Shown here one piece after another: positions 34,611 through 64,000 of a DNA stretch of 64,000 nt. The notes beneath the pieces are model-generated. The model was given only the letters and a program-made list of their open reading frames with translations, had not been told where the DNA came from and did not search any database. The DNA is taken from positions 53,773 through 117,772 of IMG/VR virus record IMGVR_UViG_3300027754_005993, one strand, 5' to 3'. Positions within the stretch are counted from its first letter, which is position 1; each line of letters opens with the position of its first letter. Position numbers and translations under genes: made by a program. The DNA is from a virus.

Positions 34611-34611
34611 A

Positions 34612-34767: not shown

Positions 34768-34770
34768 ACA

Positions 34771-37800: not shown

Positions 37801-37811
37801 GAGTATTAATT

Positions 37812-40830: not shown

Positions 40831-40841
40831 TCGTTATGGAC

Positions 40842-40849
40842 TATAAATA
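40842..40849 (+). promoter_or_regulatory. Late promoter TATAAATA
   Basis: Exact consensus before the AAGGA RBS of 40864. Confidence 0.7.
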
Positions 40850-40863
40850 TTAAAGGATAATAC

Positions 40864-42524: not shown

Positions 42525-42542
42525 ATATAACGGAGAAATTAT

Positions 42543-42974
42543 ATGCCAGCATCACGGTACGATATTCAAGCAGATCAGGGAGCAACATTCAAGTTGCATT
42601 TGCATTATAAATTTTCTGGTGGAACTGGAATTGATATTGGAAACTTTACAGGAAGAATGCAAGTCCGAAGATCCTCAAAAGATCCAAATGTTATTTTATT
42701 CTTAACTCAAAATGGTGTTACTGGTGGTGGTATTACTGGAGAATTTGCTATTGGTAGTGGAATTGCTGGTAGTGGTGGAATTAGTTTCAATACTTCTATT
42801 TCTGGAGCAACAGCATTTACTGGTGGAATATTTCTAAGAGTTGATGCTGATACTATGACTAATGTTCCAAATGGAAAGCATTTTTATGATCTTGAATTAA
42901 AGAATTCGCTCAATGAAGTGATGAGACTTATGGAAGGTTCATTTGAAGTCTCAAGAGAAATTACGAGAACATAA
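42543..42974 (+). CDS. Beta-sandwich fiber-attachment protein (LtfC/BppU-N-like)
   Basis: DQGATF, D...FTGRMQVR, YDLEL......RL.EG...V..E.T. Confidence 0.65.
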   Translation: MPASRYDIQADQGATFKLHLHYKFSGGTGIDIGNFTGRMQVRRSSKDPNVILFLTQNGVTGGGITGEFAIGSGIAGSGGISFNTSISGATAFTGGIFLRVDADTMTNVPNGKHFYDLELKNSLNEVMRLMEGSFEVSREITRT

Positions 42975-42977
42975 CAG

Positions 42978-45947
42978 ATGGCAGAAGAGAAACCAATACT
43001 GGTAGTAACTCAAATTCCTCCGAACACAATTGTTACGGAGAGTTCTGCTAATAACTTAGTAGTCAATAACACATTACCATCCACAGTATTGATTGCTGCT
43101 GCATTGGGGCCAGCAATTGCTGGTGGTGCTGGTGCTCAAGGTATAAGAGGAACTACAGGTGCTACTGGTGCTACTGGTTCTGGTTATACTGCAATTGGTC
43201 TTTCTGGTGGGTTTCTTTGGGTTTCTCCTGTAAGTAATACTGGAGTTCGTGGAGCATCATTTTCCATTGGATATGTTTTAGGATCAACTGGTAACACTGG
43301 AAATACTGGTATTCAAGGTAACACTGGTAACACTGGTAATACTGGTTCTCCAGGTATTCAAGGAAATACAGGTAACACTGGTAACACTGGAAATACTGGT
43401 TCTCCAGGTATTCAAGGTAACACTGGTAATACTGGAAACACTGGTTCTGATGGTTCTCCAGGTATTCAAGGAAATACAGGTAATACTGGTTCTCCAGGTA
43501 TTCAAGGTAACACTGGTAATACTGGAAACACTGGTGCTCCAGGTATTCAAGGTAACACTGGTAATACTGGTTCTCCAGGTATTCAAGGAAATACAGGTAA
43601 TACTGGAAACACTGGTTCTCCAGGTATTCAAGGAAATACAGGTAATACTGGTTCTCCAGGTATTCAAGGTAACACTGGTAATACTGGTAATACTGGTTCT
43701 CCAGGTATTCAAGGAAATACAGGTAATACTGGTTCTCCAGGTATTCAAGGAAATACAGGTAATACAGGTAATACTGGAAACACTGGTGCTCCAGGTATTC
43801 AAGGAAATACAGGTAATACTGGTTCTCCAGGTATTCAAGGAAATACAGGTAACACTGGTAATACAGGTATTCAAGGAAATACAGGTAACACTGGTAATAC
43901 AGGTAATACTGGTTCTCAAGGTCCATCTGGTGGTGTTAATTTTGCTTTTGGTGCAACTGCTCCTTCCAACCCAACTGGTGGAGATCAATGGTTAGATAGC
44001 AATACTGGAGCATTGCTCACTTATTTTTATGACGGAAATTCTTCTCAATGGGTTCAATTCCTTAAAGGAATTCCTGGTCCTCAAGGAGCAACTGGTCCGA
44101 GCGGAGTAGTCTCTGGTGATTATGTTGCTTTGTTCAATGGAAAAACTGGAAATGTTGGTATTTCTGCTGGATCGTTCATAACAATCACTCAAACAGGAAA
44201 CACATTTACAATATCTTCTAGTGTAGGAACTGTTGCAGGTTCTACAGGAAATACTGGTGCTACTGGTTCTCCAGGTATTCAAGGTAACACTGGTAACACT
44301 GGTAATACAGGTATTCAAGGTAACACTGGTAACACTGGTAATACAGGTATTCAAGGTAACACTGGAAATACTGGTAACACTGGAAATACAGGTATTCAAG
44401 GTAACACTGGTAATACTGGTAACACTGGAAATACAGGTATTCAAGGTAACACTGGTAACACTGGTAACACTGGTATTCAAGGTAACACTGGTAACACTGG
44501 AAATACAGGTATTCAAGGTAATACTGGAAATACTGGAGCATGTGGTCCAACCGATATACGATCAACAAATTCAGCATCCACATTCTATCCATTATTTGCT
44601 GGAGGTTCTGGAAATACTTACATTTATATTGATGATGTCACTACACCATTTACATATGTCCCAAGTAGTGGTGCATTAACAGCAAAGATATTCGCCATAG
44701 CAACTGGAGTTAATTCATCCTCATTGAACGCAACCTATGTTGAATTTAATACTAGTACAGACTCATCAAGTGTTTCTGCTACCAATATTGGTAATGTTGG
44801 ATCATCACCATTTACAGTTCAATCAAATGTTAAATTAAAATTAACTGCTCCAACTATAGAATTTTATGGATCTGGTTGGGGATATACATTCCCTGCATCA
44901 AATGGAACTACTGGTCAAGCATTACTGACAAGAGGTGATGCTGGACTTTATTGGGGAACGGTTTCTACATCTGGTGGTAGTGGAACAACTCTATTTGCTG
45001 GAAGAGGAATTACTCTAACTACAGCATCCGCAGGAACTACAGTTGCTACTATTCTAGGAATGACCAGTGCGAATGATGGATTCTTGATTTCTGGTGGTAT
45101 AACCCAAAGAACTCTTGGATTTAGTGGTGGTGATGTGACAATTGAAGGTGGAACATTTGCATCAGTAATAACATTCCCAACTGTATCTACAACACTTGTT
45201 GGAATTCACAATGCAGTAACTTCGTTCAATGGATCAACTGGTGATATTACATTCGCTGGTGGTGTTACTGGAGTGAATGGTAAAACTGGAAATGCTTTTG
45301 TGTTTGAATATTATCTAGGGTTTACTTCCACCGTAAACACTTCAACATATCCAGAAGGTGGAACTGCTAATTATGCGTCAAATCAACCAGTATATTACAG
45401 TTCCTCACCATTTAATGATATAATATCATCGGGTAGAGCAAAACCAAATAGAGTTTATTTTAATCCATTTGTAATTCCAACCCAAACAACAATACAAATA
45501 TTGCGACTTAGTGGATATCAAAACGGATTATGTGGTGGAACTGGAAATGTATTTTTAGGAATATATAATGCAAATTCTTATGGTATGCCAAAAGACAAAC
45601 TATATTCGTCCAGCAGTCTAGTAGTATTAAGTGATTTTGCCAATACTCATGATTATAATCCTTCTGGATTGATTACTCTATCTCCTGGATATTATTATCT
45701 TGCAGCAGTATTTAATAATAATCCTACACTATATTCGTTTACTACTGGAGCGCAAACCAGTACAAGTCCATTTGGATCTCAAAATCTTGCTGGTGGATAT
45801 CAGAACCGAGCTATTATTATAGATCAGGGTGGATTTACCTTACCGATAAGTGGAATCACTAGTGGTGCTAGATTTGTTGATTATAGCGTTGGTGGAACAT
45901 ATACAAATCTTATGGTAAGTCCACTAATAGAATTTAGGATTCTATAA
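42978..45947 (+). CDS. Long collagen-like tail fiber protein
   Basis: About 200-residue GNT/GSP/GIQ triplet run plus a second run; globular C-terminal domain. Confidence 0.8.
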   Translation: MAEEKPILVVTQIPPNTIVTESSANNLVVNNTLPSTVLIAAALGPAIAGGAGAQGIRGTTGATGATGSGYTAIGLSGGFLWVSPVSNTGVRGASFSIGYVLGSTGNTGNTGIQGNTGNTGNTGSPGIQGNTGNTGNTGNTGSPGIQGNTGNTGNTGSDGSPGIQGNTGNTGSPGIQGNTGNTGNTGAPGIQGNTGNTGSPGIQGNTGNTGNTGSPGIQGNTGNTGSPGIQGNTGNTGNTGSPGIQGNTGNTGSPGIQGNTGNTGNTGNTGAPGIQGNTGNTGSPGIQGNTGNTGNTGIQGNTGNTGNTGNTGSQGPSGGVNFAFGATAPSNPTGGDQWLDSNTGALLTYFYDGNSSQWVQFLKGIPGPQGATGPSGVVSGDYVALFNGKTGNVGISAGSFITITQTGNTFTISSSVGTVAGSTGNTGATGSPGIQGNTGNTGNTGIQGNTGNTGNTGIQGNTGNTGNTGNTGIQGNTGNTGNTGNTGIQGNTGNTGNTGIQGNTGNTGNTGIQGNTGNTGACGPTDIRSTNSASTFYPLFAGGSGNTYIYIDDVTTPFTYVPSSGALTAKIFAIATGVNSSSLNATYVEFNTSTDSSSVSATNIGNVGSSPFTVQSNVKLKLTAPTIEFYGSGWGYTFPASNGTTGQALLTRGDAGLYWGTVSTSGGSGTTLFAGRGITLTTASAGTTVATILGMTSANDGFLISGGITQRTLGFSGGDVTIEGGTFASVITFPTVSTTLVGIHNAVTSFNGSTGDITFAGGVTGVNGKTGNAFVFEYYLGFTSTVNTSTYPEGGTANYASNQPVYYSSSPFNDIISSGRAKPNRVYFNPFVIPTQTTIQILRLSGYQNGLCGGTGNVFLGIYNANSYGMPKDKLYSSSSLVVLSDFANTHDYNPSGLITLSPGYYYLAAVFNNNPTLYSFTTGAQTSTSPFGSQNLAGGYQNRAIIIDQGGFTLPISGITSGARFVDYSVGGTYTNLMVSPLIEFRIL
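43282..43930 (+). repeat. Imperfect 9-bp-unit tandem array encoding Gly-X-Y triplets
   Basis: ggtaatact, ggaaataca, ggttctcca and ggtattcaa units; similar arrays near 39470-39810, 44240-44545 and 47260-47410. Confidence 0.85.
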
Positions 45948-46282
45948 TGAAAGTATTCAAACAATACAGTTTCAACGAACTCACACAAGAATCAACTTTA
46001 ATAGATGATAGAGATTTTTATCATTGTAAACAATTTCAATTAAAAGAGCTAAGAAATATTGCTAACAAACTGATTATCTCTAGTGTTCCAGAATATAAGC
46101 AAAGAAACGCAGCACTTGGATTGCTGTCTGATGAAGAAACACAACAGATTAAAGATTCAATACAAGCAATAAGAACAATATCAAATCAAAAAGAAGCAGA
46201 GATACTCGCAGTTGTTTGGGATGGACAAGAATCCACAAGAGCAGAAGCGTGTGATATAGTTCAGAGGATATTCTGGGAATAA
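45947..46282 (+). CDS. Small protein after a fiber gene (possible fiber assembly chaperone)
   Basis: Coupled to the fiber gene; helical PEYKQRNAALG motif. Confidence 0.5.
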   Translation: MKVFKQYSFNELTQESTLIDDRDFYHCKQFQLKELRNIANKLIISSVPEYKQRNAALGLLSDEETQQIKDSIQAIRTISNQKEAEILAVVWDGQESTRAEACDIVQRIFWE

Positions 46283-46296
46283 ATAATTAAACTACC

Positions 46297-47766
46297 ATGC
46301 CACTAGATTTTCCTTCAAATCCAACCCTCAATTTACCATACACTTTCAACGGAACTCAATGGAAGTGGAATGGTTCTGCTTGGTTGATTGTTGGTGATAA
46401 TTTTGGTACTACAGGAGCAACAGGACCAGCTGGAAATACTGGAAACACTGGTAATAATGGAACAACAGGTAACACTGGTGCTACGGGATCTGGTTATACT
46501 GCTGCTGGTCTTTCTGGTGGATTCTTATGGATAACTCCAGTTTTATCTTCTGGTATACTTGGAGCATCATTCTCCATTGGATATGTTATTGGTTCAACTG
46601 GAGCAACTGGAAGAACGGGAACAACGGGAAATACAGGAGCAACAGGATCTGGGTATACTGCTATTGGTATTTCTGGTGGATTTCTTTGGATATCACCAGT
46701 AGACAGTAGTGGAATCCAAGGTGCTTCATTCTCTGTGGGTAGAGTTCAAGGAACAACTGGATCTACTGGTCCTACTGGATCTACAGGTGCTACAGGTAAT
46801 AATGGAACAACAGGTAACACTGGTGCTACGGGATCTGGTTATACTGCCGCTGGTCTTTCTGGTGGATTCTTATGGATATCTCCAGTATTGAATGATGGAA
46901 CTAGAGGTGCATCATTCTCTATAGGATATATTTTAGGAACAACAGGTAATACTGGAAACACTGGTAATAATGGAACAACAGGTAACACTGGTGCTACGGG
47001 ATCTGGTTATACTGCTGCTGGTCTTTCTGGTGGATTCTTATGGATAACTCCAGTTTTATCTTCTGGTATACTTGGAGCATCATTCTCCATTGGATATGTT
47101 ATTGGTTCAACTGGAGCAACTGGAAGAACTGGTACTACTGGATCTACAGGTGCTACGGGATCTGGTTATACGGCTATTGGTATTTCTGGTGGATTTCTTT
47201 GGATATCACCAGTAGATAATTTTGGTATTCGCGGAGCATCATTCTCTATAGGATATGTTCAAGGAAATACTGGAAACACTGGTAATACAGGTAATAATGG
47301 AAGTACAGGTAATACTGGAAACACTGGTAATACAGGTAATAATGGAAGTACAGGTAATACTGGAAACACTGGTAACAATGGAAATACTGGCAACACTGGT
47401 GCTACAGGATCTGGATATACTGCTATAGGATTATCTGGTGGATTCTTGTGGATATCACCAGTAGATGGATTTGGTATTCGTGGAGCATCATTCTCCATTG
47501 GATATGTTCAAGGTAATACAGGTAATACAGGAAATGACGGAACACCTGGAACAATTAGTGGTTCATATGTTCAGACCATAAATGGATTTACGGGTGGTGT
47601 TACATTGGCACAAGGAACCAATGTTACAATAAATTCTGTTGGAAATATAATAACAATCAACTCATCTGGAGCTGGGGGTGGAGTAGATGGAGTTTCTACA
47701 TATGATGGTAGAACTGGTAATATTTTCACACCACCATTAATTTTATACGCATTAGGAATAATTTAA
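46297..47766 (+). CDS. Collagen-like fiber protein with six GGFLWISP modules
   Basis: MPLDFP N-terminus; GXT runs alternating with modules. Confidence 0.78.
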   Translation: MPLDFPSNPTLNLPYTFNGTQWKWNGSAWLIVGDNFGTTGATGPAGNTGNTGNNGTTGNTGATGSGYTAAGLSGGFLWITPVLSSGILGASFSIGYVIGSTGATGRTGTTGNTGATGSGYTAIGISGGFLWISPVDSSGIQGASFSVGRVQGTTGSTGPTGSTGATGNNGTTGNTGATGSGYTAAGLSGGFLWISPVLNDGTRGASFSIGYILGTTGNTGNTGNNGTTGNTGATGSGYTAAGLSGGFLWITPVLSSGILGASFSIGYVIGSTGATGRTGTTGSTGATGSGYTAIGISGGFLWISPVDNFGIRGASFSIGYVQGNTGNTGNTGNNGSTGNTGNTGNTGNNGSTGNTGNTGNNGNTGNTGATGSGYTAIGLSGGFLWISPVDGFGIRGASFSIGYVQGNTGNTGNDGTPGTISGSYVQTINGFTGGVTLAQGTNVTINSVGNIITINSSGAGGGVDGVSTYDGRTGNIFTPPLILYALGII

Positions 47767-54984: not shown

Positions 54985-55503
54985 ATGGAATTAAAACTGT
55001 TTAAACTTCACAATAATGTCCATGAACCAAAATATGGTTCAGAGAATGCGGCATGTTTTGATCTCAGCGCATTTTTACATTATCAGGGATCAGTAAAAGC
55101 ATACACCAAAGAAAATGATCTTATGGAAATGCTTGTAACTCAGGATCCTGCTGGTAAGAATTATATTGATATTCCTGGTGAATGGAGAGTATTGATTCCT
55201 ACTGGATTGATCATGGATATTCCATGTAATCATTCTGTAAGAATTTATCCAAGATCTGGGATTTCTACCAAACAAGGGTTGAATCTTATTAATTGTGTTG
55301 GTATAATTGATTCTGATTATGTACATGAAGTTTTTATTCCTGTGTATAATACAGCACAGAAAAAGATCAGAATCTATGATAATGATAGAATTGCTCAGGG
55401 AGAAATGGTCTTTAATTACAAGACCTTAATTAATTTTACAAATGAAAGACCACTTGCGAGAGGTAATCGTGATGGTGGGTTTGGATCTACAGGAATACAA
55501 TGA
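54985..55503 (+). CDS. dut: Trimeric dUTPase
   Basis: AACFDL, IPTGL, PRSG, GIIDSDY, DRIAQ, RDGGFGSTG. Confidence 0.93.
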   Translation: MELKLFKLHNNVHEPKYGSENAACFDLSAFLHYQGSVKAYTKENDLMEMLVTQDPAGKNYIDIPGEWRVLIPTGLIMDIPCNHSVRIYPRSGISTKQGLNLINCVGIIDSDYVHEVFIPVYNTAQKKIRIYDNDRIAQGEMVFNYKTLINFTNERPLARGNRDGGFGSTGIQ

Positions 55504-56837
55504 ATACAGCAAAACTTGATGATGTTGTGAACTTTCTGAAGAAGTTCGCTGGTGATGATGGTATACCAATTATTGGTGGAACTGATTGGGAAGAGATGAA
55601 TACTCTCTTCAAGAAAGAAGAAATCAAAGAAGGAATGGCAGAATATATTTCAAAGTATTCTGTATTATTTCCTTTTAGACAAATTCCAATTGAAGACTCC
55701 GAAAAGAAATTTCGTGAACTTCGTGCTGCTCCGCATATGGAATTTATTATGCGTGAATCGGGAGAAGTCGTTGAAAAATATGAGGATTACAAATATCCAT
55801 ATTCAACTCATGGTAAATTTGTAATTTCATTTGGTCATTATTTCAATGACATTAGCAATTACTATCATCAACGCAATCGCTATGATTGCGGATCGCATGG
55901 ATTTGTTTCTCCAAATGAATACTGGTATTCTCCCGACCTACTCAAGAAAATGAATTGGACATTCTGGAGAATGGAAGATCGTGGAATCAATCATGGAAAG
56001 ATTCGTGGATCCTTTCGTCTTGGAGCATATGTTGCTACTCAGTTTAAACCACAAGTAGCAAAGACAATCTTTGATTTTGTTAAGTTCAAGGTAAAGGCTC
56101 ATCAATTCCGTGTTCTTGATTTTAGTATGGGGTGGGGAGATCGCCTTGCAGGATTTTATACATCAAAGGCGACTCAGTATCTGGGAACAGATCCAAATCC
56201 AAGTGTATTTCGTGTATATAAGGATCAGTGTATTGCATATGAAAAACTAATCAGTGGTAAGGATCCAATTATCACTGATTTTCAAAAAGAAGTGAATGGG
56301 CATTTCTATGATGCTTTCCGTTGCGTTGGTTCTTCTGGTAAAGAAGTGATTGTGTACAATGCTCCTGCTGAAGATATCCTTGATGTTGTTCGCGCTAATA
56401 AATATGATTGTATCTTTACATCTCCTCCATATTTTGCAACTGAACTATATGATGAGGGTGGAGATGATTGGAAACAGTCTTGGTTTCGTTACAGCGAATA
56501 TGACAATTGGTGGAATAAGTTCTACGCACCAGTAATGAAAGCGTGTTATGAATCCCTTACCGACAATGGAGCGATGATGATTAATATCATGGATCCACAT
56601 GTATATGGTAAACGATATAATACATGTGATCAGATGGTAGATTATATCAAGAGTCTTGGTGGAACATTTGATGGTCAGATTGGAATGAGAATCAAGCAGC
56701 GTCCAAAAAATGTTGATGCTGCTGATCTTAAAGAACATTTAACCACAACCTTTATTGAGAATATTTGGTGTTTTTCCAAGAATGGATTTGACTTATCCCC
56801 AGGATTTGCTACACTAGAAGGACTATTTGGAGACTAA
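55500..56837 (+). CDS. Amino (N4-C/N6-A) DNA methyltransferase-like protein
   Basis: Motif I VLDFSMGWGDRL, G.DPN, motif IV FTSPPYF..E.Y. Confidence 0.8.
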   Translation: MNTAKLDDVVNFLKKFAGDDGIPIIGGTDWEEMNTLFKKEEIKEGMAEYISKYSVLFPFRQIPIEDSEKKFRELRAAPHMEFIMRESGEVVEKYEDYKYPYSTHGKFVISFGHYFNDISNYYHQRNRYDCGSHGFVSPNEYWYSPDLLKKMNWTFWRMEDRGINHGKIRGSFRLGAYVATQFKPQVAKTIFDFVKFKVKAHQFRVLDFSMGWGDRLAGFYTSKATQYLGTDPNPSVFRVYKDQCIAYEKLISGKDPIITDFQKEVNGHFYDAFRCVGSSGKEVIVYNAPAEDILDVVRANKYDCIFTSPPYFATELYDEGGDDWKQSWFRYSEYDNWWNKFYAPVMKACYESLTDNGAMMINIMDPHVYGKRYNTCDQMVDYIKSLGGTFDGQIGMRIKQRPKNVDAADLKEHLTTTFIENIWCFSKNGFDLSPGFATLEGLFGD

Positions 56838-56838
56838 T

Positions 56839-57147
56839 ATGACTCGTGATGAACTTTTTAAAATGCATGAAGATATGTGTTGCTCTGCACTTGACCTTAT
56901 GAGAAAAAAGAATGCAGACTACGCTGGCAGTGGTAGTGATCCCTTTGCGAACTTTCGTCGTGCAGAAGCATTGGGGGTTTGCTCCACTGAGCAAGCATTC
57001 CTTGTTCGCATGACCGATAAGATGTCACGATTGACATCATTCGCCAGCAGAGGGAAATTGAGTGTTGAAGATGAAACCGTGTATGATACTCTAGAAGATT
57101 TGATCAATTACTCTGTGCTGCTTGCAGCATACCTAAAATCCAAATGA
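56839..57147 (+). CDS. DUF1599/Nmad1-like all-alpha nucleotide-modification-associated protein
   Basis: KKNADY, ANF, R..DK..RL, DTL.DLINY. Confidence 0.7.
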   Translation: MTRDELFKMHEDMCCSALDLMRKKNADYAGSGSDPFANFRRAEALGVCSTEQAFLVRMTDKMSRLTSFASRGKLSVEDETVYDTLEDLINYSVLLAAYLKSK

Positions 57148-58625
57148 ATTTCTATACAAATGTATTTTATGATTTCAAGTCCATTCTTTATGCAGAAAAA
57201 GAGAATGGCATAACTGTCTATAGGAGTGAGGAATATGTTCCAAGCGTTTATCTGCCGTCTAAAAAGAAAACTGATTCTCTTTCGATTCATGGTCAGTATG
57301 TTCATGAAATGACATTTGATTCTTATCAGTCATACAAGGAATTCTCTGAGAAGTATGCTGATGTCCCCAATTTTGAGATTCATGGTGATATTCAAACCGA
57401 ATATCAGTTCATCAATCGCAAATATGGAACTGATATTTCCTATGATTTTTCACAGATAGACATCATGTATATTGACATTGAAACCACCTCTGAGAAGGGG
57501 TGGCCTTCAATTGAAGATCCTGAAGAAGAGATCATTGCGATTACTGTATTTTCCAGTAAGCATGGAAATGCAACTTTCTGTCTTGGTATATTCAATCCTG
57601 GCGATATGGATATCAAGGTATTTGAATATCAAGATGAACAGAAACTACTCAGAGAATTCCTTGAATACTTTGCCAAGAATTATCCCGATGTTGTGAGTGG
57701 TTGGAACATTCGTTTCTTTGACTTTCCATATCTCATCAAGAGAATCAAAAAGGTTCTTGGACATAAAGCAGCAAAGATGCTTTCTCCTTGGGGTATTCTA
57801 AAGGAAAAGTATATCACTCGCAATGGTAAGGAAGATCTGATGTATGATATCATCGGAGTCTCCATGCTCGACTACTTTGAAGTCTACAAGACATTCACAT
57901 ATGTCAATCAGGAATCTTATCGTCTTGATCATATTGCGTATGTTGAATTAGGTCAGCGTAAATTGGCATATGATGAATACGAGAGTATGAATGAGTTCTA
58001 CAAGAAGGATTTCCAGAAGTTTATTCAGTATAATATCCGAGATGTTGAACTCGTTCAGAAATTGGAAGAGAAGTTAAAGCTTATAGAACTCTCTGTGGCA
58101 CTTGCATATTCAGCAGGAGTTAATTTTCAGGATGTATTCTCTCAGGTTCGTACATGGGATGTAATCATCTATAATTACTTGAGCAAGAAGAACATCGTCA
58201 TTCCTCCCAAGAAGAGGGGACGAAAGGATGAGCAATATGCTGGTGCTTATGTCAAGGAACCTCTTGTCGGTATGCATGAATGGGTAGTATCCTTTGACTT
58301 GAATTCACTTTATCCGCATCTCATCATGCATTATAATATTTCCACAGAGACAATCACACCCGATGAAGTGCGTGGTCTTATTTCACCAGATGCTATTCTC
58401 AAAGGTGATGTTGTTGCCACTAAATTAATACAACAATTCAAGGAAAAGAATCTATCCGTTGCTGCCAATGGGACAACCTATCGCAAGGATATTCGTGGAT
58501 TCTTACCAGAACTTATGGATACGATGTATCAAGAGCGTAAAACATTCAAAAATAAAATGATTGAATCGCAAAAACATTTAGAGGAAATCACTAAGGAACT
58601 CATGCGTAGGGCATTGACAAAGTAA
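57144..58625 (+). CDS. gp43: DNA polymerase gp43, N-terminal cistron (43A: exonuclease, motif A, first fingers helix)
   Basis: DIET, GWN...FD.PY, SY.LD, YNI.DV, GAYVKEP, SFDLNSLYP; ends after Y.ERK.FK..M. Confidence 0.93.
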   Translation: MNFYTNVFYDFKSILYAEKENGITVYRSEEYVPSVYLPSKKKTDSLSIHGQYVHEMTFDSYQSYKEFSEKYADVPNFEIHGDIQTEYQFINRKYGTDISYDFSQIDIMYIDIETTSEKGWPSIEDPEEEIIAITVFSSKHGNATFCLGIFNPGDMDIKVFEYQDEQKLLREFLEYFAKNYPDVVSGWNIRFFDFPYLIKRIKKVLGHKAAKMLSPWGILKEKYITRNGKEDLMYDIIGVSMLDYFEVYKTFTYVNQESYRLDHIAYVELGQRKLAYDEYESMNEFYKKDFQKFIQYNIRDVELVQKLEEKLKLIELSVALAYSAGVNFQDVFSQVRTWDVIIYNYLSKKNIVIPPKKRGRKDEQYAGAYVKEPLVGMHEWVVSFDLNSLYPHLIMHYNISTETITPDEVRGLISPDAILKGDVVATKLIQQFKEKNLSVAANGTTYRKDIRGFLPELMDTMYQERKTFKNKMIESQKHLEEITKELMRRALTK

Positions 58626-58641
58626 AGTTTTCTGGTATAAT
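58614..58641 (+). promoter_or_regulatory. Consensus sigma70 promoter TTGACA-16-TATAAT (TGn) overlapping the end of 43A
   Basis: TTGACA 58614-19, TATAAT 58636-41; ATG at 58648. Confidence 0.75.
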
Positions 58642-58647
58642 AGACGG

Positions 58648-59187
58648 ATGGAAACGAGGAACATTATTGACTACTTTCATTACTGGACGCACGAAGCGAT
58701 TATTGCAGATCTTGATGCAAAACGGAATAATTTTACCGTTCTTTGCAGCAATCTTTACAATGATTTCAACATCGCTACAGTCATTCGTAACTCAAATGCG
58801 TTCCTCGCGAAGCAGGTGATCCTATACGGATCCAAGCAGTATGATCGCCGTGGCACTGTTGGAACACATCATTATACTAATTTCATTCATGCCAAGACTT
58901 TTACCGAACTAGATGAAAGAATGAAGATTCTTCGTCAGACCTATGGTACGGTAAAGATCATCGGCATAGATAATGTTCCAGGTGCTACGGCGATTGATAC
59001 TTTTGAATGGAACACAAATACACATTATGTTCTAGCGTTCGGTCAAGAACAAGTCGGTCTACCAACAGAAATCCTCGACATCTGTGATCACATCTTGTAT
59101 ATTAAACAATATGGAACTGTCAGGAGTCTGAATGTAGGAACCGCGAGTGGTATCGCAATGTACGCACTCGCAAGTAATGTGTTTTAA
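58648..59187 (+). CDS. SPOUT (SpoU/TrmH family) RNA 2'-O-methyltransferase
   Basis: N...DFNI..VIR..NAF, FGQE..GL, I..YG.VRSLNV..A.GIAM. Confidence 0.88.
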   Translation: METRNIIDYFHYWTHEAIIADLDAKRNNFTVLCSNLYNDFNIATVIRNSNAFLAKQVILYGSKQYDRRGTVGTHHYTNFIHAKTFTELDERMKILRQTYGTVKIIGIDNVPGATAIDTFEWNTNTHYVLAFGQEQVGLPTEILDICDHILYIKQYGTVRSLNVGTASGIAMYALASNVF

Positions 59188-59258
59188 TACCCCGTGGTGA
59201 AATGGTATCACAGAAGCCTTTGGAGCTTCTTTTCTTGGTTCGAATCCAAGCGGGGTAG
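59188..59258 (+). tRNA. tRNA-Gln (anticodon UUG), no encoded CCA
   Basis: Acceptor TACCCCG/CGGGGTA, anticodon arm GAAGC-CTTTGGA-GCTTC, T arm CTTGG-TTCGAAT-CCAAG. Confidence 0.9.
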
Positions 59259-59263
59259 TTTTT

Positions 59264-59336
59264 GGGGATGTAGTCCAATGGCAGAGACAAATCACTTAAA
59301 ATGATTCCAGTGTGGGTTCGAGTCCCACCATCCTTA
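59264..59336 (+). tRNA. tRNA-Leu (anticodon UAA) with a short variable loop, no encoded CCA
   Basis: Acceptor GGGGATG/CATCCTT, anticodon arm AATCA-CTTAAAA-TGATT, T arm GTGGG-TTCGAGT-CCCAC. Confidence 0.85.
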
Positions 59337-59356
59337 TTAAATCGGAGACGACGATA

Positions 59357-59599
59357 ATGTATGGAATTATGACCAAACTGAACAACTTCGTTGACGACAA
59401 CCTGAAAGACTCCTTGGGAGTACCTCGTAAGGGCGTTCTGGCATTTAAGAAGAAGACTAGTGCGGTCACCGAATGTGATGCCCTGAATGACCTCCTGACG
59501 ACTAAGAAAACTAAACCATATGTGGTTGCCAAGTTTCCAGAAGATGAAACCTCATCATATGGATTTATTGTGGATGGTGTGTGGAAGCAAAAATTATAA
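59357..59599 (+). CDS. Hypothetical protein (80 aa)
   Basis: GGAG RBS at 59344 and ATG 59357, in the frame of ORF 59312..59599. Confidence 0.55.
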   Translation: MYGIMTKLNNFVDDNLKDSLGVPRKGVLAFKKKTSAVTECDALNDLLTTKKTKPYVVAKFPEDETSSYGFIVDGVWKQKL

Positions 59600-59602
59600 A
59601 TA
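59595..59602 (+). promoter_or_regulatory. Late promoter TATAAATA inside the polymerase intercistronic region
   Basis: Exact consensus before a GAGG RBS and ATG 59622. Confidence 0.6.
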
Positions 59603-59621
59603 CTTCATAAGAGGAACAATT

Positions 59622-59981
59622 ATGGAATGTATTTCGAAATTACTGACACTTCAAAACCAACTTCGCGTTCACCATTGGCAAACACCATCATATGCTGAAC
59701 ACAAAGCATTGGGTAAGGCATACGCAGGATTGGATCCACTAATTGATACCTTTGTGGAAACATATATGGGCAAGTATGGAAAAGATACACAGCAGAATAG
59801 AAGTATTGATCTACAAGGGTACGAAACTGCTCATCCAATGCCAGTATTGAAGTATTTTGAAAATTATTTAATCAATGAACTTCCAAACGATTTGTCTGAA
59901 CAAGATACAGAACTTTTAAATATTCGCGATGAAATGTTAAGTGTTCTCAATCAGACTAAGTATCTCTTGACTCTACATTGA
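59622..59981 (+). CDS. Ferritin/Dps-like four-helix protein (DUF5856-like)
   Basis: HWQT.SYAEHKALG..Y..L..LID.FVE.Y.GKYG, L.NIRDEM......TKYLLTL. Confidence 0.75.
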   Translation: MECISKLLTLQNQLRVHHWQTPSYAEHKALGKAYAGLDPLIDTFVETYMGKYGKDTQQNRSIDLQGYETAHPMPVLKYFENYLINELPNDLSEQDTELLNIRDEMLSVLNQTKYLLTLH

Positions 59982-59995
59982 GTTTGTAGTATCAT
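59967..59995 (+). promoter_or_regulatory. Sigma70-like promoter (TTGACT-17-TATCAT) that could drive ORF 60002 and 43B
   Basis: ATG 60002 lies 7 nt after the -10 box. Confidence 0.5.
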
Positions 59996-60001
59996 GTGTG
60001 A

Positions 60002-60244
60002 ATGATTTACGAGTTTAAAAATCCAATTCCTGTAACCACACCTATGGGTGATGGTTATATTTTATATGTTCGCGATGGCGGAACATGGGAAAACGATATT
60101 TTCGCCGTGGTCTTGACTGAAGGTGGAACGATTCGGCATTTTAGAAGTGATCAGTTGAATGTTTGGGCGAATGCCACCTTTGGAATTAAAAAGGATTCTA
60201 CATTATGTCAAAAGACTACTCCAAGTTCACCGATGCCCAACTAA
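60002..60244 (+). CDS. Hypothetical protein
   Basis: 80-aa ORF overlapping the 43B start. Confidence 0.55.
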   Translation: MIYEFKNPIPVTTPMGDGYILYVRDGGTWENDIFAVVLTEGGTIRHFRSDQLNVWANATFGIKKDSTLCQKTTPSSPMPN

Positions 60245-61356
60245 TGGCACTGAAAAAACAAACTGAACATGATATATCCAAGTATCATAATTTTCAGTTG
60301 GTTCGCAAGATTCAGTTAAACTCCGCTTACGGTGCGATAGGGAACCAATATTTTAGATATTATTCTACCGAACTCGCAGAGGCGATTACTCTGTCGGGTC
60401 AATTGTCAATTCAATGGATCGGTCAAGAACTAAACAAATATCTCAACAAGATTATTGGCACTACCGATGTGGATTATGTGATTGCATCAGATACAGATTC
60501 TGTTTATCTGTGTCTTAATAATCTAGTCTTGAAGGTATTTCCAAACACAGGTCTTTTTGATGGAAAACCAGTTTCGCGACCACCGACAAAGACCGTAGTT
60601 GATTTCTTAGATAAGTCTGCGGAACAGGCGATCATTCCATTCATTGAGAAGAAGTTTGCTGAACTCGCACTCACCATGAATGCATACGAGAACAAAATGC
60701 AGATGGGTCGGGAAGTCATTGCCGACAAGGGAATATGGACTGCCAAGAAACGGTATATGTTGAATGTTTGGGATTCTGAAGGTGTGCGCTATGCAGAACC
60801 TAAACTCAAGATCATGGGAATTGAAACTACTCGTTCTTCAACTCCAGAGTTTGTCCGTAAGCATCTTAAGAAGGCTATCAATATTACCATGAATGGCACT
60901 GCACAGGATATGATAGACTTTGTTGAGAAGTGTCGTAATGAATTTTACGCACTGCCTCCAGAGGATATTGCATTTCCTCGTAGCGTAAACGGATTGGAAA
61001 AATATATTGATCGTTCTGCAATTTATAAAAAATCAACACCTATTGCCGTAAAGGGTGCTTTGATTTACAATCATTATCTTGCTAAATTCAAGATTGGTAA
61101 GAAATATAGGAAGATTATTGAAGGAGATAAGATTAAATTTCTAATGCTCAAGAAACCAAATCCTGTTGGTGGTTGCATTGGAGAAGATCAGGTTATTTCT
61201 TTTCCAAATGTTCTTCCAAAAGAATTTGAACTTGAGAAATATATTGATTATAAAACGCAATTTGAGAAATCTTTTATTGATCCTCTGACCGCCATTCTAG
61301 ATACTATTGGGTGGTCAACTGAAAAGAAAAATACATTAGAAAACCTATTTGGTTGA
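60205..61356 (+). CDS. gp43: DNA polymerase gp43, C-terminal cistron (43B: motifs B and C, thumb, clamp-binding tail)
   Basis: KIQLNSAYGAIGN, IT.SGQ, ASDTDSVY, KKRY, KIMGIE..RSSTP, C-terminal TLENLFG; AAGGA RBS. Confidence 0.93.
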   Translation: MSKDYSKFTDAQLMALKKQTEHDISKYHNFQLVRKIQLNSAYGAIGNQYFRYYSTELAEAITLSGQLSIQWIGQELNKYLNKIIGTTDVDYVIASDTDSVYLCLNNLVLKVFPNTGLFDGKPVSRPPTKTVVDFLDKSAEQAIIPFIEKKFAELALTMNAYENKMQMGREVIADKGIWTAKKRYMLNVWDSEGVRYAEPKLKIMGIETTRSSTPEFVRKHLKKAINITMNGTAQDMIDFVEKCRNEFYALPPEDIAFPRSVNGLEKYIDRSAIYKKSTPIAVKGALIYNHYLAKFKIGKKYRKIIEGDKIKFLMLKKPNPVGGCIGEDQVISFPNVLPKEFELEKYIDYKTQFEKSFIDPLTAILDTIGWSTEKKNTLENLFG

Positions 61357-61366
61357 AAGGAATATT

Positions 61367-62410
61367 ATGAGTGATTTTTTATCGTCTATGGTTAAGAATT
61401 CTGGAAACAAATACGCATCACTGGTTTCCGATGGTCTTGAGGGAAGTGATGTAAATGGATTCGTGGATACTGGATGTTATATTCTGAATGGACTACTGTC
61501 GGCATCCATTTATAATGGAATGCCAAATAATAAAATTACAGCGATTGCGGGAGAAACATCCACAGGAAAGACTTATATCGCTTTGGGAATTGCCTCTAAG
61601 TTTTTACGGGATAATCCCAATGCTGTTGTTTTATATTTTGATTCTGAACAAGCAGTTACTTCTGAGATGTTCAAGAATCGTGGAATTGACCCAAAGCGAA
61701 TTGCAGTATTTCCAGTATCAACGGTGGAGGAATTTCGTCATCAAGTAATTACGATTGTGGACAAATATATTGACCTTCCCAAAGGGGAACAGAAACCAAC
61801 CTTCATCGTTCTTGATTCGTTGGGAATGTTGTCCACGACCAAAGAGATGACTGATACCGCTGATGGAAAAGATACAAGGGATATGACCCGCGCACAAATC
61901 ATCAAGGCTACATTTAGAGTCTTGACGGTAAAACTTGGTGTGGCGAAGATTCCTCTTCTGATGACAAACCACACATATCAATCCATGGGAATGTTCCCAA
62001 CGGCAGAACTTGCTGGTGGTCAGGGATTGAAGTATGCGGCATCAACTATTCTTTATCTTTCCAAGCGAAAGGATAAGAATTCTGATGGTGAGGTTGTTGG
62101 AAATATCATTCATTGTAAACTTTATAAGGGTAGATTCACCAAAGAAAATAGCATGGTGGATATTCGGTTGAATTACGAAACTGGACTTGACCCATATTAT
62201 GGTCTTGTGGATGTTGCGGTATCTGCTGGAATATTCAAAAAGAATTCAACGCGCATTGAACTTCCAGATGGAACCAAAGCGTTTGAGAAGACGATTTATG
62301 ATAATCCAGAAAAGTATTTTACCAAAGATGTTCTTGCGTTAGTGGAGAAGGCAGTGTATACTCAGTTCAGTTATGGTGGAGAGAAAACCATAGAGAACAC
62401 CGATGACTGA
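61367..62410 (+). CDS. uvsX: RecA-like recombinase UvsX
   Basis: DTG..LN.L.S, AGE.STGKT, YFDSE, LDSLG.L, DMTRA, GG.G..YAAS. Confidence 0.95.
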   Translation: MSDFLSSMVKNSGNKYASLVSDGLEGSDVNGFVDTGCYILNGLLSASIYNGMPNNKITAIAGETSTGKTYIALGIASKFLRDNPNAVVLYFDSEQAVTSEMFKNRGIDPKRIAVFPVSTVEEFRHQVITIVDKYIDLPKGEQKPTFIVLDSLGMLSTTKEMTDTADGKDTRDMTRAQIIKATFRVLTVKLGVAKIPLLMTNHTYQSMGMFPTAELAGGQGLKYAASTILYLSKRKDKNSDGEVVGNIIHCKLYKGRFTKENSMVDIRLNYETGLDPYYGLVDVAVSAGIFKKNSTRIELPDGTKAFEKTIYDNPEKYFTKDVLALVEKAVYTQFSYGGEKTIENTDD

Positions 62411-63767
62411 TGTTGAAAAACTAATTCTTCACAACCTTCTCAAGAACGAGACATACGCACGAAAAGTTACTCCCTTCCTACAGAGGGAGTATTTTCATGA
62501 TCGTGGACTACGATTTGTTTTTGAGACTATTCATGAATTTATTCTAAAATATAATAACCTTCCCACAAAGGAAGCGATCTATATCATTCTTGATAAGAAC
62601 AAAAGTATTAATCAAGAAGAGATGAAGCGCATCACAAATTATGTGGAGGAGATTTGCAATTCAAAGGAAAATGTTGATTCTGAATGGTTGATGACAGAAA
62701 CTGAAACTTTCTGCAAGGATAAGGCGGTATATAATGCGATCATGGAATCCATTCAGATTATAGATGGAAAGACTCAGCAATCTCAGGGATCTATTCCTGA
62801 TATTCTATCCAAGGCGTTGTCGGTATCATTTGATGTTCATATCGGTCACGATTATATTGAAGACTATGAGAAACGATATGATTTCTACCACACGGTAGAG
62901 AAACGAATTCCATTTGATTTGGATGGATTCAATCAGATCACAAATGGGGGAACTCCTGCAAAGACTTTGAACATTGTCATGGCAGGAACTGGTGTTGGTA
63001 AATCATTGTTCCTGTGCCATCATGCTGCAAATTGTCTCAAAAAGAATTGTAAGGTTCTATACATCACCTGTGAGATGGCAGAGGAAAGAATTGCAGAACG
63101 CATTGATGCAAATCTTCTTGATGTTACTCTTGATAATCTTCGCGAACTTTCAAAGGTAATCTATGAAAAGAAAATTCAGAATCTGAGTGCTGGAGTTCAA
63201 GGTAAACTTATCATCAAGGAATATCCAACTGCTACAGCAAATGTAAATCACTTTCGGTTTTTGTTGGATGAACTTTGGTTGAAGCGTAAGTTTAAACCCG
63301 ATGTGATCTTCATTGATTATCTGAACATCTGTGCTTCAGCAAGAGTAAAGAGTGGAAACAATGTAAACTCCTACACTTACATCAAGTCAATTGCAGAGGA
63401 GATTCGTGGTCTTGCGGTTGAATATAATGTACCAATTTTCAGTGCCACGCAAACTACTCGCTCTGGGCATTCAAACACGGATGTTAGTCTTGAGGATACT
63501 TCCGAGTCATTTGGTCTTCCAGCAACTGCTGACTTTATGTTCGCCTTGATCTCTACAGATGAACTTGCGGAACAGAATCAGATCATGGTGAAGCAGTTAA
63601 AGAATCGTTACAATGATACAGCAACCAATCGTAAGTTCTTGCTTAACATTCAGCGTGCTAAGATGAAACTTTCCGATATTCCACCGCAACACACAAATCT
63701 CATTACTATTCCTATTGCTAATCAACCAAAGCAAAAGGGTCAAAAGTTTGAAGATTGGAATTTCTAA
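62403..63767 (+). CDS. gp41: Replicative DNA helicase gp41
   Basis: AGTGVGKS, EMAEERIAERIDAN, IKEYPT, IDYLNIC, ATQTTR, SESFGLPATAD, KQLKNRY. Confidence 0.96.
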   Translation: MTDVEKLILHNLLKNETYARKVTPFLQREYFHDRGLRFVFETIHEFILKYNNLPTKEAIYIILDKNKSINQEEMKRITNYVEEICNSKENVDSEWLMTETETFCKDKAVYNAIMESIQIIDGKTQQSQGSIPDILSKALSVSFDVHIGHDYIEDYEKRYDFYHTVEKRIPFDLDGFNQITNGGTPAKTLNIVMAGTGVGKSLFLCHHAANCLKKNCKVLYITCEMAEERIAERIDANLLDVTLDNLRELSKVIYEKKIQNLSAGVQGKLIIKEYPTATANVNHFRFLLDELWLKRKFKPDVIFIDYLNICASARVKSGNNVNSYTYIKSIAEEIRGLAVEYNVPIFSATQTTRSGHSNTDVSLEDTSESFGLPATADFMFALISTDELAEQNQIMVKQLKNRYNDTATNRKFLLNIQRAKMKLSDIPPQHTNLITIPIANQPKQKGQKFEDWNF

Positions 63768-64000
63768 TGTCTGCTTATCTTGATCGTAAATATATCAATT
63801 TGGTTTCTAATTCCCTTGTGAAATTTAAATGGAAGAAGGTAAATCTTGCTAACTGCCGTTGTGTCTTTTGTGGTGATTCCGAGACAAATAAGAACAAAGC
63901 GAGAGGTTATTTCTTCAGCAGTAAGGATAGTTATTTTTATAAATGTCATAACTGTGGGGTTTCATATAATGTGTACAAGTTTCTTGAAGTGATCTCTCCT
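63767..64000 (+). CDS. gp61: DNA primase gp61, N-terminal zinc-binding domain (partial, runs off the window)
   Basis: ATG 63767 (TAATG): MSAYLDRKYINLVS...NCRCVFCGDS..NK.KARGYF......YKCHNCG. Confidence 0.88.
   Translation, partial: MSAYLDRKYINLVSNSLVKFKWKKVNLANCRCVFCGDSETNKNKARGYFFSSKDSYFYKCHNCGVSYNVYKFLEVISP

Follow-up and report, generated by a model that had tools for sequence, protein, structure and literature searches.

The unit described here lies in a 117,772-bp record of an uncultured freshwater T4-like phage (myovirus), estimated to be 65% complete, of which a stretch of 64,000 nucleotides (the window, whose numbering is used throughout) was analysed. On the plus strand, the order is promoter, 179-aa SpoU/SPOUT ORF, tRNA-Gln(UUG) and tRNA-Leu(UAA), and the whole lies where a T4-type DNA polymerase is split at the fingertip, inside a gap of 1.58 kb. 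Upstream is the N-terminal half of this family-B polymerase (gp43; 57144-58625; Pfam DNA_pol_B_exo1 and DNA_pol_B; PHROG 262 and 2062), the end of which is overlapped by a sigma-70-type early promoter, TTGACA-16-TGgTATAAT (58614-58641), that is conserved in relatives. The gene for a predicted SpoU/SPOUT RNA 2'-O-methyltransferase (58648-59187), recognised by Pfam PF00588, an AF2 model and fold matches, is followed by the 71-nt tRNA-Gln(UUG) (59188-59258), a 5-nt TTTTT spacer (59259-59263) and the 73-nt tRNA-Leu(UAA) (59264-59336). The remainder of the gap, on the same strand, holds a small conserved 76-aa ORF (orf76; 59369-59599), which has no family match in Pfam or PHROGs and comes after the tRNAs in most relatives; a DUF5856 protein (59622-59981; PHROG 858), a passenger in the polymerase gap; and an 80-aa ORF (60002-60244) that overlaps the start of the C-terminal polymerase half (60205-61356), with its motif B, motif C and thumb. 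Megablast returned no hit to 57000-61500 from a set of 50,697 phage records. The original prediction, made from the letters alone, had described a perfect TTGACA-16-TATAAT promoter, a 179-aa SPOUT enzyme, a tRNA-Gln(UUG) directly after its stop codon and a tRNA-Leu(UAA) 5 nt on, and each of these was recovered, the tRNA-Leu with identical bounds by Rfam. Its description of the cassette as self-contained holds in part: the unit has transcription signals of its own, but the -35 hexamer is embedded in polymerase codons and no terminator was seen downstream of the two tRNAs.

The promoter matches at 12/12 positions, with TTGACA at 58614-58619, a 16-nt spacer carrying TG at 58633-58634, and TATAAT at 58636-58641; it is the only such site in 55000-64000. 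Perfect sites number 11 in the whole record versus 0.24 expected, and 200 shuffles of the record averaged 0.25, with 3 as the highest count. Four of the nine on the plus strand head tRNA units, in one of which the predicted start falls on position +1 of a tRNA-Arg, and a dUTPase-like gene is headed by a second TGnTATAAT-N6-ATG unit. The -35 hexamer at the present locus encodes the terminal Leu-Thr of the upstream polymerase half, which ends Leu-Thr-Lys-stop (stop codon, 58623-58625), and the enzyme ATG lies 6 nt past the end of the -10 hexamer. The promoter is kept in about 45 of 50 polymerase-linked loci (39 with at most two mismatches by script, three more by eye in L040, L041 and L050, and three with three mismatches), with 6 or 7 nt between the -10 end and the ATG and without a Shine-Dalgarno sequence.

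The enzyme ORF ends in TAA at 59185-59187 and tRNA-Gln begins at the very next base, with bounds identical by ARAGORN and Rfam (RF00005; 62 bits against a gathering score of 29). The tRNA-Leu (57.3 bits by Rfam, also drawn by ARAGORN and present in relatives) has a short variable arm, discriminator A73, G1-U72 and G2-U71 pairs, and A36-A37-A38; the bounds given by ARAGORN, 59263-59337, entail an 8-bp acceptor stem and were set aside as the poorer call. All nine tRNAs of the record have the D-loop GG and lack an encoded CCA, and eight of the nine have U34. The two tRNAs suit the codon use of the phage, as had been proposed, with CAA accounting for 70% of the codons for Gln, and UUA and UUG together for 40% of those for Leu.

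The N-terminal polymerase half contains the exonuclease domain, motif A and the first fingers helix, and the C-terminal half resumes with the second fingers helix bearing motif B; with SLYP in the former and NSAYG and DTDS in the latter, the break falls between motifs A and B. In an alignment to an unsplit 860-aa homolog, the N-terminal half (its residues 3-482) covers residues 8-494 and the C-terminal half (its residues 10-382) covers 496-859; the gap ranges from 0.9 to 4.4 kb in 20 loci. The cistrons of the published split gp43 of T4-like phages are 2 bp to 3 kb apart (Petrov et al. 2006, 2010, via the available part of PMC3061061). The present polymerase resembles these, as far as that part describes them, in its fingertip break between motifs A and B and in the inserted DNA that parts its cistrons; it differs in that the gap carries a promoter, tRNA genes and a methyltransferase gene, and in that the last codons of the N-terminal half are partly formed by the -35 hexamer.

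The 179-aa product matched PF00588 (SpoU_methylase) over residues 29-172 with 85.5 bits (cut-off, 29.7; E = 4.9e-24), behind a conserved 28-aa N-terminal extension. Residues N41, R47, E134, S160 and N162 are invariant in 36 of 36 aligned family members; in a wider set of 79, R47 and E134 are invariant and the other three at least 90% conserved. They align with Asn35, Arg41, Glu124, Ser150 and Asn152 of Thermus thermophilus TrmH (1v2x alignment), the catalytic roles of which are set out in the available part of PMC5372735. The AF2 model (pLDDT 88.1; pTM 0.85) matched more than 50 SPOUT entries in overall fold, with Z between 14 and 18.8. By its sequence, the enzyme is a member of a mainly viral SpoU subfamily without a characterised member; over 1,000 protein clusters (90% identity) were retrieved, and the clusters nearest to it in the Atlas have 89-100% viral content. 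No PHROGs family matched the enzyme, and a PF00588 search of 14 control genomes returned no loci. Among 22 long representatives, two have an N-terminal SocA/Panacea antitoxin domain and others GNAT, HAD, HTH or DUF559 domains; these fused-domain clusters have one or two members each, and the HTH-fused member comes from an Actinomyces genome. The original prediction had tentatively likened the N terminus to the actinobacterial Rv0380c-like subfamily; the pointers to such a resemblance are indirect, namely this Actinomyces member and the 33-35% identical genes of Rhodococcus phages. An apparent in-frame fusion of an orf76-like segment to the enzyme (L075, L077 and L078) was rejected, the upstream ORF being in another frame and the similarity to orf76 amounting to 27% at E = 0.014 in a tiny search space.

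When the family profile was compared with the PDB, the four best matches were 1zjr (2.4e-13), 7edc (7.9e-12), 2ha8 (3.5e-11) and 1v2x (2.3e-8), all of them Gm18 enzymes or the human homolog thereof. Lower matches were AviRb (6.4e-7), RlmB (1e-5) and TrmL-type chains (about 1e-5 to 2e-5), the last matching only profile positions of about 117-175, the C-terminal 60 or so residues. Structural comparison gave Z scores of 18.8 for AviRb, 18.8-17.4 for rRNA methyltransferases, 16.9-18.2 for TrmH and 14-15.3 for TrmL/TrmJ; with the scores tied, the modelled catalytic domain fits rRNA methyltransferases as well as it fits TrmH. The N-terminal extension of the model was aligned by TrmH chains only (162-165 aligned residues); rRNA enzymes align from about model residue 25 on, via their own residues from about 100-130 on, which are their C-terminal catalytic domains. 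An N-terminal L30e-like RNA-binding domain is absent from the phage protein, and short N-terminal regions mark tRNA SPOUT enzymes, unlike rRNA ones, in the available part of PMC5372735. The protein did not reach the NCBIfam equivalog cut-offs for TrmH (NF008295; 43.2 bits vs 227), RlmB (TIGR00186; 46.9 vs 160), TrmL (TIGR00185; 27.2 vs 190.6) or TrmJ (TIGR00050; 31 vs 167), and the C-terminal extension domain of TrmJ is absent. TrmL is a minimal domain that lacks an N-terminal extension, in contrast to the 28 conserved residues of the phage protein. The best E-value for NF008295 among the 79 subfamily members was 1.8e-23, still short of the cut-off; the RlmB model matched 79 of 79, with a bit score slightly above that of the TrmH model.

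TrmH (SpoU) is thus the nearest solved relative by family profile, and shares with the phage enzyme the SPOUT fold, the five catalytic residues, a GxH-aromatic segment after strand 2 and a short N-terminal helical extension. The two differ in that identity is 16-22%, that Phe replaces the phosphate-binding His34, and that the phage enzyme has motifs of its own (an N-terminal ETRN-I-D-Y-YW..E-I..DLD, plus DRRG), is viral and is encoded within tRNA arrays. A TrmH-like basic C-terminal tail is also missing, because the protein stops about 6 residues past motif 3; the alignment ends at TrmH residue 164, about residue 173 of the 179. Arg166, Arg168 and Arg176 of T. thermophilus TrmH belong to this basic region, which serves initial tRNA binding (available part of PMC5372735), and the target site of a Streptomyces SPOUT enzyme was at one time misassigned by homology (available part of PMC12772374).

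The neighbourhood of the gene was surveyed in 80 related viral loci from IMG/VR, which represent 55 distinct enzyme sequences and 12 clusters at 80% identity. In 74 loci, the enzyme gene has a tRNA gene no more than 1.3 kb away, and in 56 of those the distance is within 150 nt; in the remaining six, the contig ends at most 20 nt from the ORF. All 318 tRNA genes (318/318) are on the strand of the enzyme, and the linkage persists through at least five different rearrangements and in two genome regions. The adjacent tRNA is Gln in 36 of the linked loci, Ile(UAU) in 19, Gly in 9, Leu in 7 and Asp in 3; this variation indicates a general link to tRNAs and not the dedicated Gln/Leu enzyme-substrate pair of the original prediction. 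That prediction had named a lack of tRNA linkage among homologs as evidence against it. The close relatives are linked, and the linkage does not extend beyond the clade: distant homologs (at most 53% identity) had a tRNA within 3 kb in none of nine loci, and sit in ordinary cellular contexts without tRNA genes. The only matches in the 50,697 phage records were in Rhodococcus phages NiceHouse and Trina and in the 484-kb uncultured LR756508, with 33-39% identity over 96% of the protein (33-35% for the Rhodococcus phage genes). The NiceHouse and Trina homologs are annotated 'tRNA-methyltransferase', a predicted function; unlike the present locus, NiceHouse has no tRNA gene within 6 kb of its homolog, and LR756508 has a single tRNA-Met, 3.3 kb away.

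No Shine-Dalgarno sequence was found upstream of the enzyme ATG, a feature that is not unique to this gene, because 27 of the 70 ORF starts in the window likewise have no Shine-Dalgarno-like triplet. In a second arrangement found among the relatives, the enzyme ATG lies 1-2 nt past the 3' end of a tRNA-Ile(UAU), and the TAG of the ORF falls within a tRNA-Glu; the distance from the stop codon to tRNA-Gln is 0 nt in 24 loci. The -10-to-ATG spacing, the missing Shine-Dalgarno and the ATG that abuts a tRNA together imply a leaderless message bounded by tRNA processing, and the first base of the enzyme mRNA is probably the A of the ATG or one beside it. A contig from an RNA library (58452-59138) joins the 3' end of the polymerase half to the promoter and the enzyme ORF, as either read-through transcription or DNA carry-over would produce; a start at the ATG is not evident from it. 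In 4 of 4 metatranscriptome runs, parts of the enzyme ORF are covered by assembled contigs, which may include DNA carry-over and carry no ends, strand or level, so that low tRNA coverage and other holes in them are uninformative.

Together, the anatomy of the unit, its conserved spacing and linkage to tRNAs, and the fold and catalytic residues of the enzyme, which the analysis shows, are best explained, with moderate confidence, by an early-promoter tRNA unit whose first cistron encodes a tRNA 2'-O-methyltransferase on a leaderless, tRNA-bounded message, with G18 as the likeliest site; the start of transcription, the processing, the tRNA substrate and the methylation site are probable readings of the sequence. 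Transcription would begin at or beside the A of the ATG to give a leaderless mRNA. By cleaving before the first base of tRNA-Gln, RNase P would give this message a 3' end that coincides exactly with its UAA stop; tRNA-Gln(UUG) and tRNA-Leu(UAA) would be freed and would then need CCA addition. The product, a predicted homodimeric, SAM-dependent tRNA methyltransferase, probably acts broadly on new phage tRNAs and perhaps on host tRNAs too; the D-loop G18 would be the most probable site, where methylation would stabilise the tRNA elbow. The enzyme gene abuts tRNA genes and related phages have kept that linkage, from which we infer that the phage probably modifies its own tRNAs. Weighing against this reading are the equivalog scores below their cut-offs, the equally good fit of the catalytic domain to rRNA methyltransferases, the missing basic tail, the Streptomyces precedent, the RNA-library contig, the frequency of ORF starts lacking a Shine-Dalgarno-like triplet and the distant homologs without tRNA neighbours. 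The module behaves as a further slot of the phage tRNA array and, in this lineage, occupies the polymerase fingertip split.

The original prediction favoured a narrower activity, that of a TrmL/TrmJ-like methylase of anticodon-loop position 34 or 32 dedicated to Gln(UUG) and Leu(UAA/CAA), which would tune decoding or block anticodon nucleases. The polymerase-linked arrangement does place Gln(UUG), Leu(UAA) and often Leu(CAA) after the enzyme gene, and the prevalence of U34 and the A36-A37-A38 of tRNA-Leu would suit such an enzyme. E. coli TrmL targets the Leu CAA/UAA isoacceptors and TrmJ position 32 (available parts of PMC7736821 and PMC12772374), and phage tRNAs have been proposed in print as an escape from tRNA-targeting defences (available part of PMC10264068). 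Nevertheless, 31 of the 74 linked loci have Ile(UAU)/Glu(UUC), Gly or Asp as the neighbour; TrmL-type profile matches reach E = 1.6e-5 at best and cover the C-terminal part only, whereas the Gm18 enzymes, to which the profile is nearest, lie between 2e-13 and 2e-8; structural Z is 14-15.3 against 17-18.8 for the TrmH/rRNA group; and the NCBIfam scores (TrmL, 27 bits; TrmJ, 31) are far under their cut-offs (191 and 167). The Gln and Leu neighbours cannot tell the sites apart, because their E. coli counterparts bear Gm18 as well (available part of PMC7736821). We consider an anticodon-loop activity unlikely, and the anticodon-nuclease idea is the less supported. It is distinctly improbable that the target is instead host rRNA, as for RlmB, AviRb and TsnR, or another RNA, with altered ribosomes or resistance to ribosome toxins as the outcome; the location would then follow from tRNA genes being strong early transcription units. 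RlmB gives the best NCBIfam score and matches the entire subfamily, AviRb and other rRNA methyltransferases head the structural ranking, and the distant homologs live apart from tRNA genes; against this, the N-terminal rRNA-binding domain is absent, the PDB profile E-values favour Gm18 enzymes by 5-6 orders of magnitude, and expression convenience alone would not predict a linkage kept through so many rearrangements.

Protective methylation has a likened precedent in Hen1 of the bacterial Pnkp/Hen1 RNA-repair system, and the phage enzyme might similarly place a 2'-O-methyl at the nuclease cut site of phage or repaired tRNAs, which would stop recutting by host ribotoxins. Faint signs of this, all in distant members of the subfamily, are the two SocA/Panacea fusions, an RNA ligase 2.3 kb upstream and an AAA_33 kinase-like ORF downstream of the enzyme in L085, an RNA ligase gene about 1.1 kb downstream in NiceHouse, and a calcineurin-like phosphoesterase gene immediately upstream in L003 and L084 (L004, L027 and L028 have upstream sequence in common with L003). 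The 49+61+9 ORFs of the present 117.8-kb record, itself an estimated 65% of the genome, include no RNA ligase or polynucleotide kinase domain; the domain fusions are singletons and possibly gene-calling artefacts; and the best-known tRNA ribotoxins cut in the anticodon loop, to which G18, if it is the site, does not belong. Such immunisation is, to our minds, very unlikely. A composite in which an RNase P-cut, tRNA-punctuated leaderless mRNA, an Nm shield against tRNA-cleaving defences and a mobile module splitting the polymerase all hold is conceivable, although doubtful. If the tRNA-punctuated reading is true, ribosomes would compete with tRNA-processing enzymes over one precursor, enzyme output would follow the load of unprocessed phage tRNA, the leaderless 5' end would come either from the promoter 6 nt upstream or from cleavage 1-2 nt past a preceding tRNA, and the RNase P cut would fall at, or even inside, the stop codon.

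The preferred tRNA-methyltransferase unit recalls two known systems. The T4 tRNA cluster has co-oriented genes, sigma-70-type early promoters and RNase P-dependent precursors, and its tRNAs without an encoded CCA require 3' trimming and CCA addition; it is not known to contain a tRNA-modifying enzyme. The present T4-like phage shares the co-oriented, CCA-less tRNAs and the sigma-70-type early promoters, and differs in the protein cistron, which is fitted in with a margin of 0-2 nt, either between two tRNAs or between the promoter and a tRNA. In the tRNA punctuation of animal mitochondria, leaderless messages are bounded by tRNA processing sites and have the stop codon at the 3' end. The phage message would likewise be leaderless and tRNA-processing-bounded, with its stop at the extreme 3' end; unlike the mitochondrial case, the setting is phage and bacterial, there is a single cistron, and one arrangement has the stop inside the downstream tRNA. 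No phage methyltransferase of this kind was described in the literature searched, and the available part of a 2026 review on the role of tRNA modification in virus replication makes no mention of TrmH, SpoU or Gm18.

Throughout a clade of abundant T4-like phages of fresh water, a predicted ribose methyltransferase gene is kept within the tRNA arrays. Enzyme and substrate set are clonable, which offers a way to ask whether phages modify their own tRNAs and whether the modification protects; the 0-2 nt packing against tRNAs is also a test case from the bacterial world for the translation of leaderless, tRNA-bounded messages. Two related contigs were binned in Bacteroidota and Flavobacteriales MAGs, and the sigma-70 consensus promoters of the record are presumably a poor fit to Bacteroidota promoters.

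The promoter, SPOUT ORF, tRNA-Gln and tRNA-Leu of the original prediction were all recovered by promoter scan, Pfam, ARAGORN and Rfam, and all lie on the plus strand. The promoter, TTGACA-16-TATAAT with a TG upstream of the -10 (58614-58641), is the sole 12/12 match of the scan in 55000-64000, and is followed by the 179-aa enzyme ORF (58648-59187), whose SpoU_methylase domain scored 85.5 bits against a cut-off of 29.7. From the very base after its TAA stop (59185-59187), the ORF gives way to tRNA-Gln(UUG) (59188-59258; ARAGORN and Rfam); a TTTTT spacer then precedes tRNA-Leu(UAA), which has A73 and whose predicted borders, 59264-59336, were reproduced by Rfam. The ARAGORN borders for the latter (59263-59337) give an 8-bp acceptor stem and are less plausible. 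When the window's tRNA-Leu was compared with loci L003, L008, L016, L019, L020, L037, L038, L050, L052, L068, L073 and L077, tRNAs with Leu anticodons proved to take two forms in the clade, one of 81-90 nt with the normal long arm and one of 73 nt with a short variable arm, the latter being that of the window; UAA or CAA anticodons were found in both, as were A73 and compensatory stem changes between phages.

A scan of IMG/VR yielded 104 relatives, of which the best 80, with 57-99% protein identity, were kept; their 55 different enzyme sequences group into 12 clusters at 80% identity. In 74 of these 80 loci the enzyme gene has a tRNA gene no more than 1.3 kb away (at up to 150 nt in 56 loci, at 151-600 nt in 17 and at 601-1300 nt in one), and in all six others the contig ended within 20 nt of the ORF; the strand of the tRNA genes was that of the enzyme in 318 of 318 cases. 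None of nine loci of more distant homologs (identity 53% or less; cellular MAG contigs, Rhodococcus phage NiceHouse and a 484-kb phage) had a tRNA within 3 kb. Two arrangements were seen among the best 80. In 50 loci, the enzyme gene lies 3' of the N-terminal half of the polymerase, and its downstream neighbours are Gln(UUG) and Leu(UAA), often with Leu(CAA), or else Leu alone, Asp-Asn or a longer array. The remaining loci have the gene within a large tRNA array, most often flanked by Ile(UAU) and Glu(UUC), or placed some 340 nt past Gly(UCC); of four records of this second kind that were searched, one gave a polymerase match, and there the polymerase was unsplit and 77 kb from the enzyme gene. 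The partner tRNA is not fixed, and the dedicated Gln/Leu pairing originally proposed was not supported, since the partner changes between related loci (Ile/Glu, Gly and Asp-Asn neighbours). The left-hand tRNA island of the record to which the window belongs has Ile(UAU) and Glu(UUC) as neighbours, separated by 4 nt. This junction, empty here, is the slot that holds the enzyme gene in array-embedded relatives, and we therefore conclude that the gene travels as a further member of the tRNA array.

The polymerase that flanks the unit is a gp43 in two cistrons, an N-terminal half of 493 aa (57144-58625, plus strand) and a C-terminal half of 383 aa (60205-61356, plus strand), which in alignment together span the unsplit 860-aa homolog of a related record; the unsplit gene is in a more distant relative (L094). 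Motifs A and B lie on either side of the break, which is at the fingertip of the fingers; fingertip splits with 2 bp to 3 kb of intervening DNA have been described in T4-like phages (PMC3061061, citing Petrov et al. 2006, 2010). The C-terminal tail of the N half has no counterpart in the unsplit enzyme, and its Leu-Thr is encoded by the -35 hexamer, for which reason the promoter appears to belong to the inserted DNA. Also present in the gap, after the tRNAs, are a 76-aa ORF (59369-59599, plus strand), as well as a DUF5856 gene and an 80-aa ORF. Among the best 80 relatives, 20 loci with both halves have gaps of 0.9-4.4 kb. In these loci the gap is a variable island of tRNAs, HNH endonucleases (L016, L019), DUF6065, metallophosphoesterase and AdoMet decarboxylase genes; the 76-aa ORF is retained 3' of the tRNAs in most polymerase-linked loci, and a small ORF weakly like it (27% identity) lies directly 5' of the enzyme gene in L075 (4370-4573), L077 and L078.

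Perfect promoters number 11 in the 117,772-bp record (9 on the coding strand) against 0.24 expected, and 200 shuffles of the record gave a maximum of 3; the match is therefore not due to chance. Of the nine perfect plus-strand promoters, four head tRNA units, and the predicted start of one is the first base of tRNA-Arg. Among the 50 polymerase-linked loci, the promoter was found with at most two mismatches in 39 by script and in the same design by eye in three more; three others had three mismatches with an extended -10, and five lacked it. In this arrangement, the -10 hexamer ends 6 nt before the ATG (7 nt in five loci), and no Shine-Dalgarno sequence precedes the enzyme ATG. By the usual sigma-70 geometry, the predicted start is the A of the ATG; transcription from this base would produce a leaderless mRNA. 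TGnTATAAT-N6-ATG also precedes a dUTPase-like gene at 54985. Perfect or near-perfect extended -10 promoters occur at record positions 12641, 16118, 20109, 108723 (window 54951) and 112386 (window 58614), with predicted starts at the first base of tRNA(Arg) or at the A of the ATG (dUTPase-like and SPOUT genes).

At the 3' end of the cistron, the stop codon abuts tRNA-Gln in 24 loci. In array-embedded loci, the enzyme ATG lies 1-2 nt past the 3' end of tRNA-Ile(UAU), and the last three codons and TAG lie inside tRNA-Glu(UUC) (L052, L057, L063 and L073, around locus position 5000-5555), such that RNase P cleavage would yield a message without a stop codon. Taken from these spacings, the enzyme cistron would in every arrangement be bounded by tRNA processing sites or a start-site promoter, and we infer the processing itself. 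Assembled RNA contigs covered parts of the enzyme ORF in four of four metatranscriptome runs; one spans the polymerase end, promoter and enzyme ORF, as would be expected either of read-through transcription or of a library that contains DNA.

With a cut-off of E 0.001, a word-index search for the enzyme family returned 1,028 clusters, the best 120 of which were all at least 57% identical; a full search returned at least 150 clusters (50% identity) at E 1e-30 or better. Most of the full-search clusters align from profile position 2-6, which makes the conserved N-terminal extension a subfamily hallmark; the closest Atlas clusters were 89-100% viral. By Foldseek and VIA-align, the confident AF2 model (pLDDT 88.1) fell in the TrmH/RlmB/AviRb group (Z 16.9-18.8), with TrmL and TrmJ lower (Z 14-15.3). 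The likeness to TrmH extends to the N-terminal extension, covered by TrmH chains only, to the five residues essential in T. thermophilus TrmH, all invariant in the family, and to the family profile, whose top four PDB matches were Gm18-type proteins (2.4e-13 to 2.3e-8), ahead of rRNA enzymes and then TrmL-type chains. In contrast, the enzyme lacks the basic C-terminal tail of TrmH, and the curated NCBIfam cut-offs for TrmH, RlmB, TrmL and TrmJ were reached by 0 of 36 close and 0 of 79 wider members. Given these differences, and a presumed TrmL of Streptomyces that in fact acted at position 32 (as stated in part of PMC12772374), we filed the enzyme as a putative SPOUT 2'-O-methyltransferase of an uncharacterised subfamily, which would work most like TrmH.

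Three features point to tRNA as the substrate: the conserved embedding among co-transcribed tRNA genes, the TrmH-like profile, and an N-terminal region that is short, as is typical of SPOUT enzymes that act on tRNA (PMC5372735). The changing neighbours point to broad specificity. The Gln and Leu neighbours are compatible with TrmL- or TrmJ-type action, but are not diagnostic of it; E. coli carries Gm18 on 12 of 35 tRNAs, tRNA-Gln(UUG) and tRNA-Leu(UAA) among them (according to a portion of PMC7736821), and such neighbours therefore fit a Gm18 enzyme equally well. All nine tRNAs of the record have the D-loop GG and lack an encoded CCA, and they decode the phage's preferred A-ending codons (CAA 70%, GAA 79%, AGA 46%).

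Taken singly, SPOUT enzymes, tRNA arrays of phages, early sigma-70 promoters and split gp43 polymerases are all of known kinds. Their combination is new in three respects: an uncharacterised SpoU subfamily has a viral clade that is fixed within tRNA arrays, the packing implies a leaderless message with tRNA processing sites as its bounds, and the unit lies in the polymerase fingertip split. No description of such an enzyme was found in the main texts of the open-access literature searched.

Only weak hints of a role in defence were seen. The wider SpoU subfamily has 22 long representatives, of which two carry a SocA/Panacea antitoxin domain and others GNAT, HAD, HTH or DUF559 domains, all domain-fused members being clusters of 1-2 sequences. 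Distant homologs have an RNA ligase gene nearby in two contexts, the gene immediately 5' of the enzyme encodes a metallophosphoesterase in L003 and in one bacterial locus, and no RNA-repair genes were found in the 117.8-kb record. The L003 upstream sequence is common to L004, L027 and L028. The ligase contexts are an Armatimonadota contig (L085, 1-684 and 2489-2998), where the gene immediately upstream is GmrSD-like, and Rhodococcus phage NiceHouse (L081, 7660-8208). The extra domains of the rare fused members P0151, P0178, P0235, P0202, P0217, P0175, P0165 and P0187 are N-terminal; one of these members comes from an Actinomyces genome.

The virus record, a single contig of which the window forms the second half, carries the T4 core genes for neck, terminase, sheath, portal, prohead protease, scaffold, gp23 capsid, UvsY, UvsW, gp46/47, gp45, gp44/62, RegA, gp32, baseplate proteins, UvsX and gp41 helicase. 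IMG/VR classes the record as a provirus (CheckV completeness estimate 65%), at odds with its gene content, which is that of a lytic T4-like myovirus; no integrase was found among the ORFs scanned. A sugar-nucleotide/glycosyltransferase block (24921-39026; epimerases, DegT aminotransferases, GT2, GT10, GT17 and DUF5672) is followed by collagen-repeat proteins (39055-47766), probably tail fibres.
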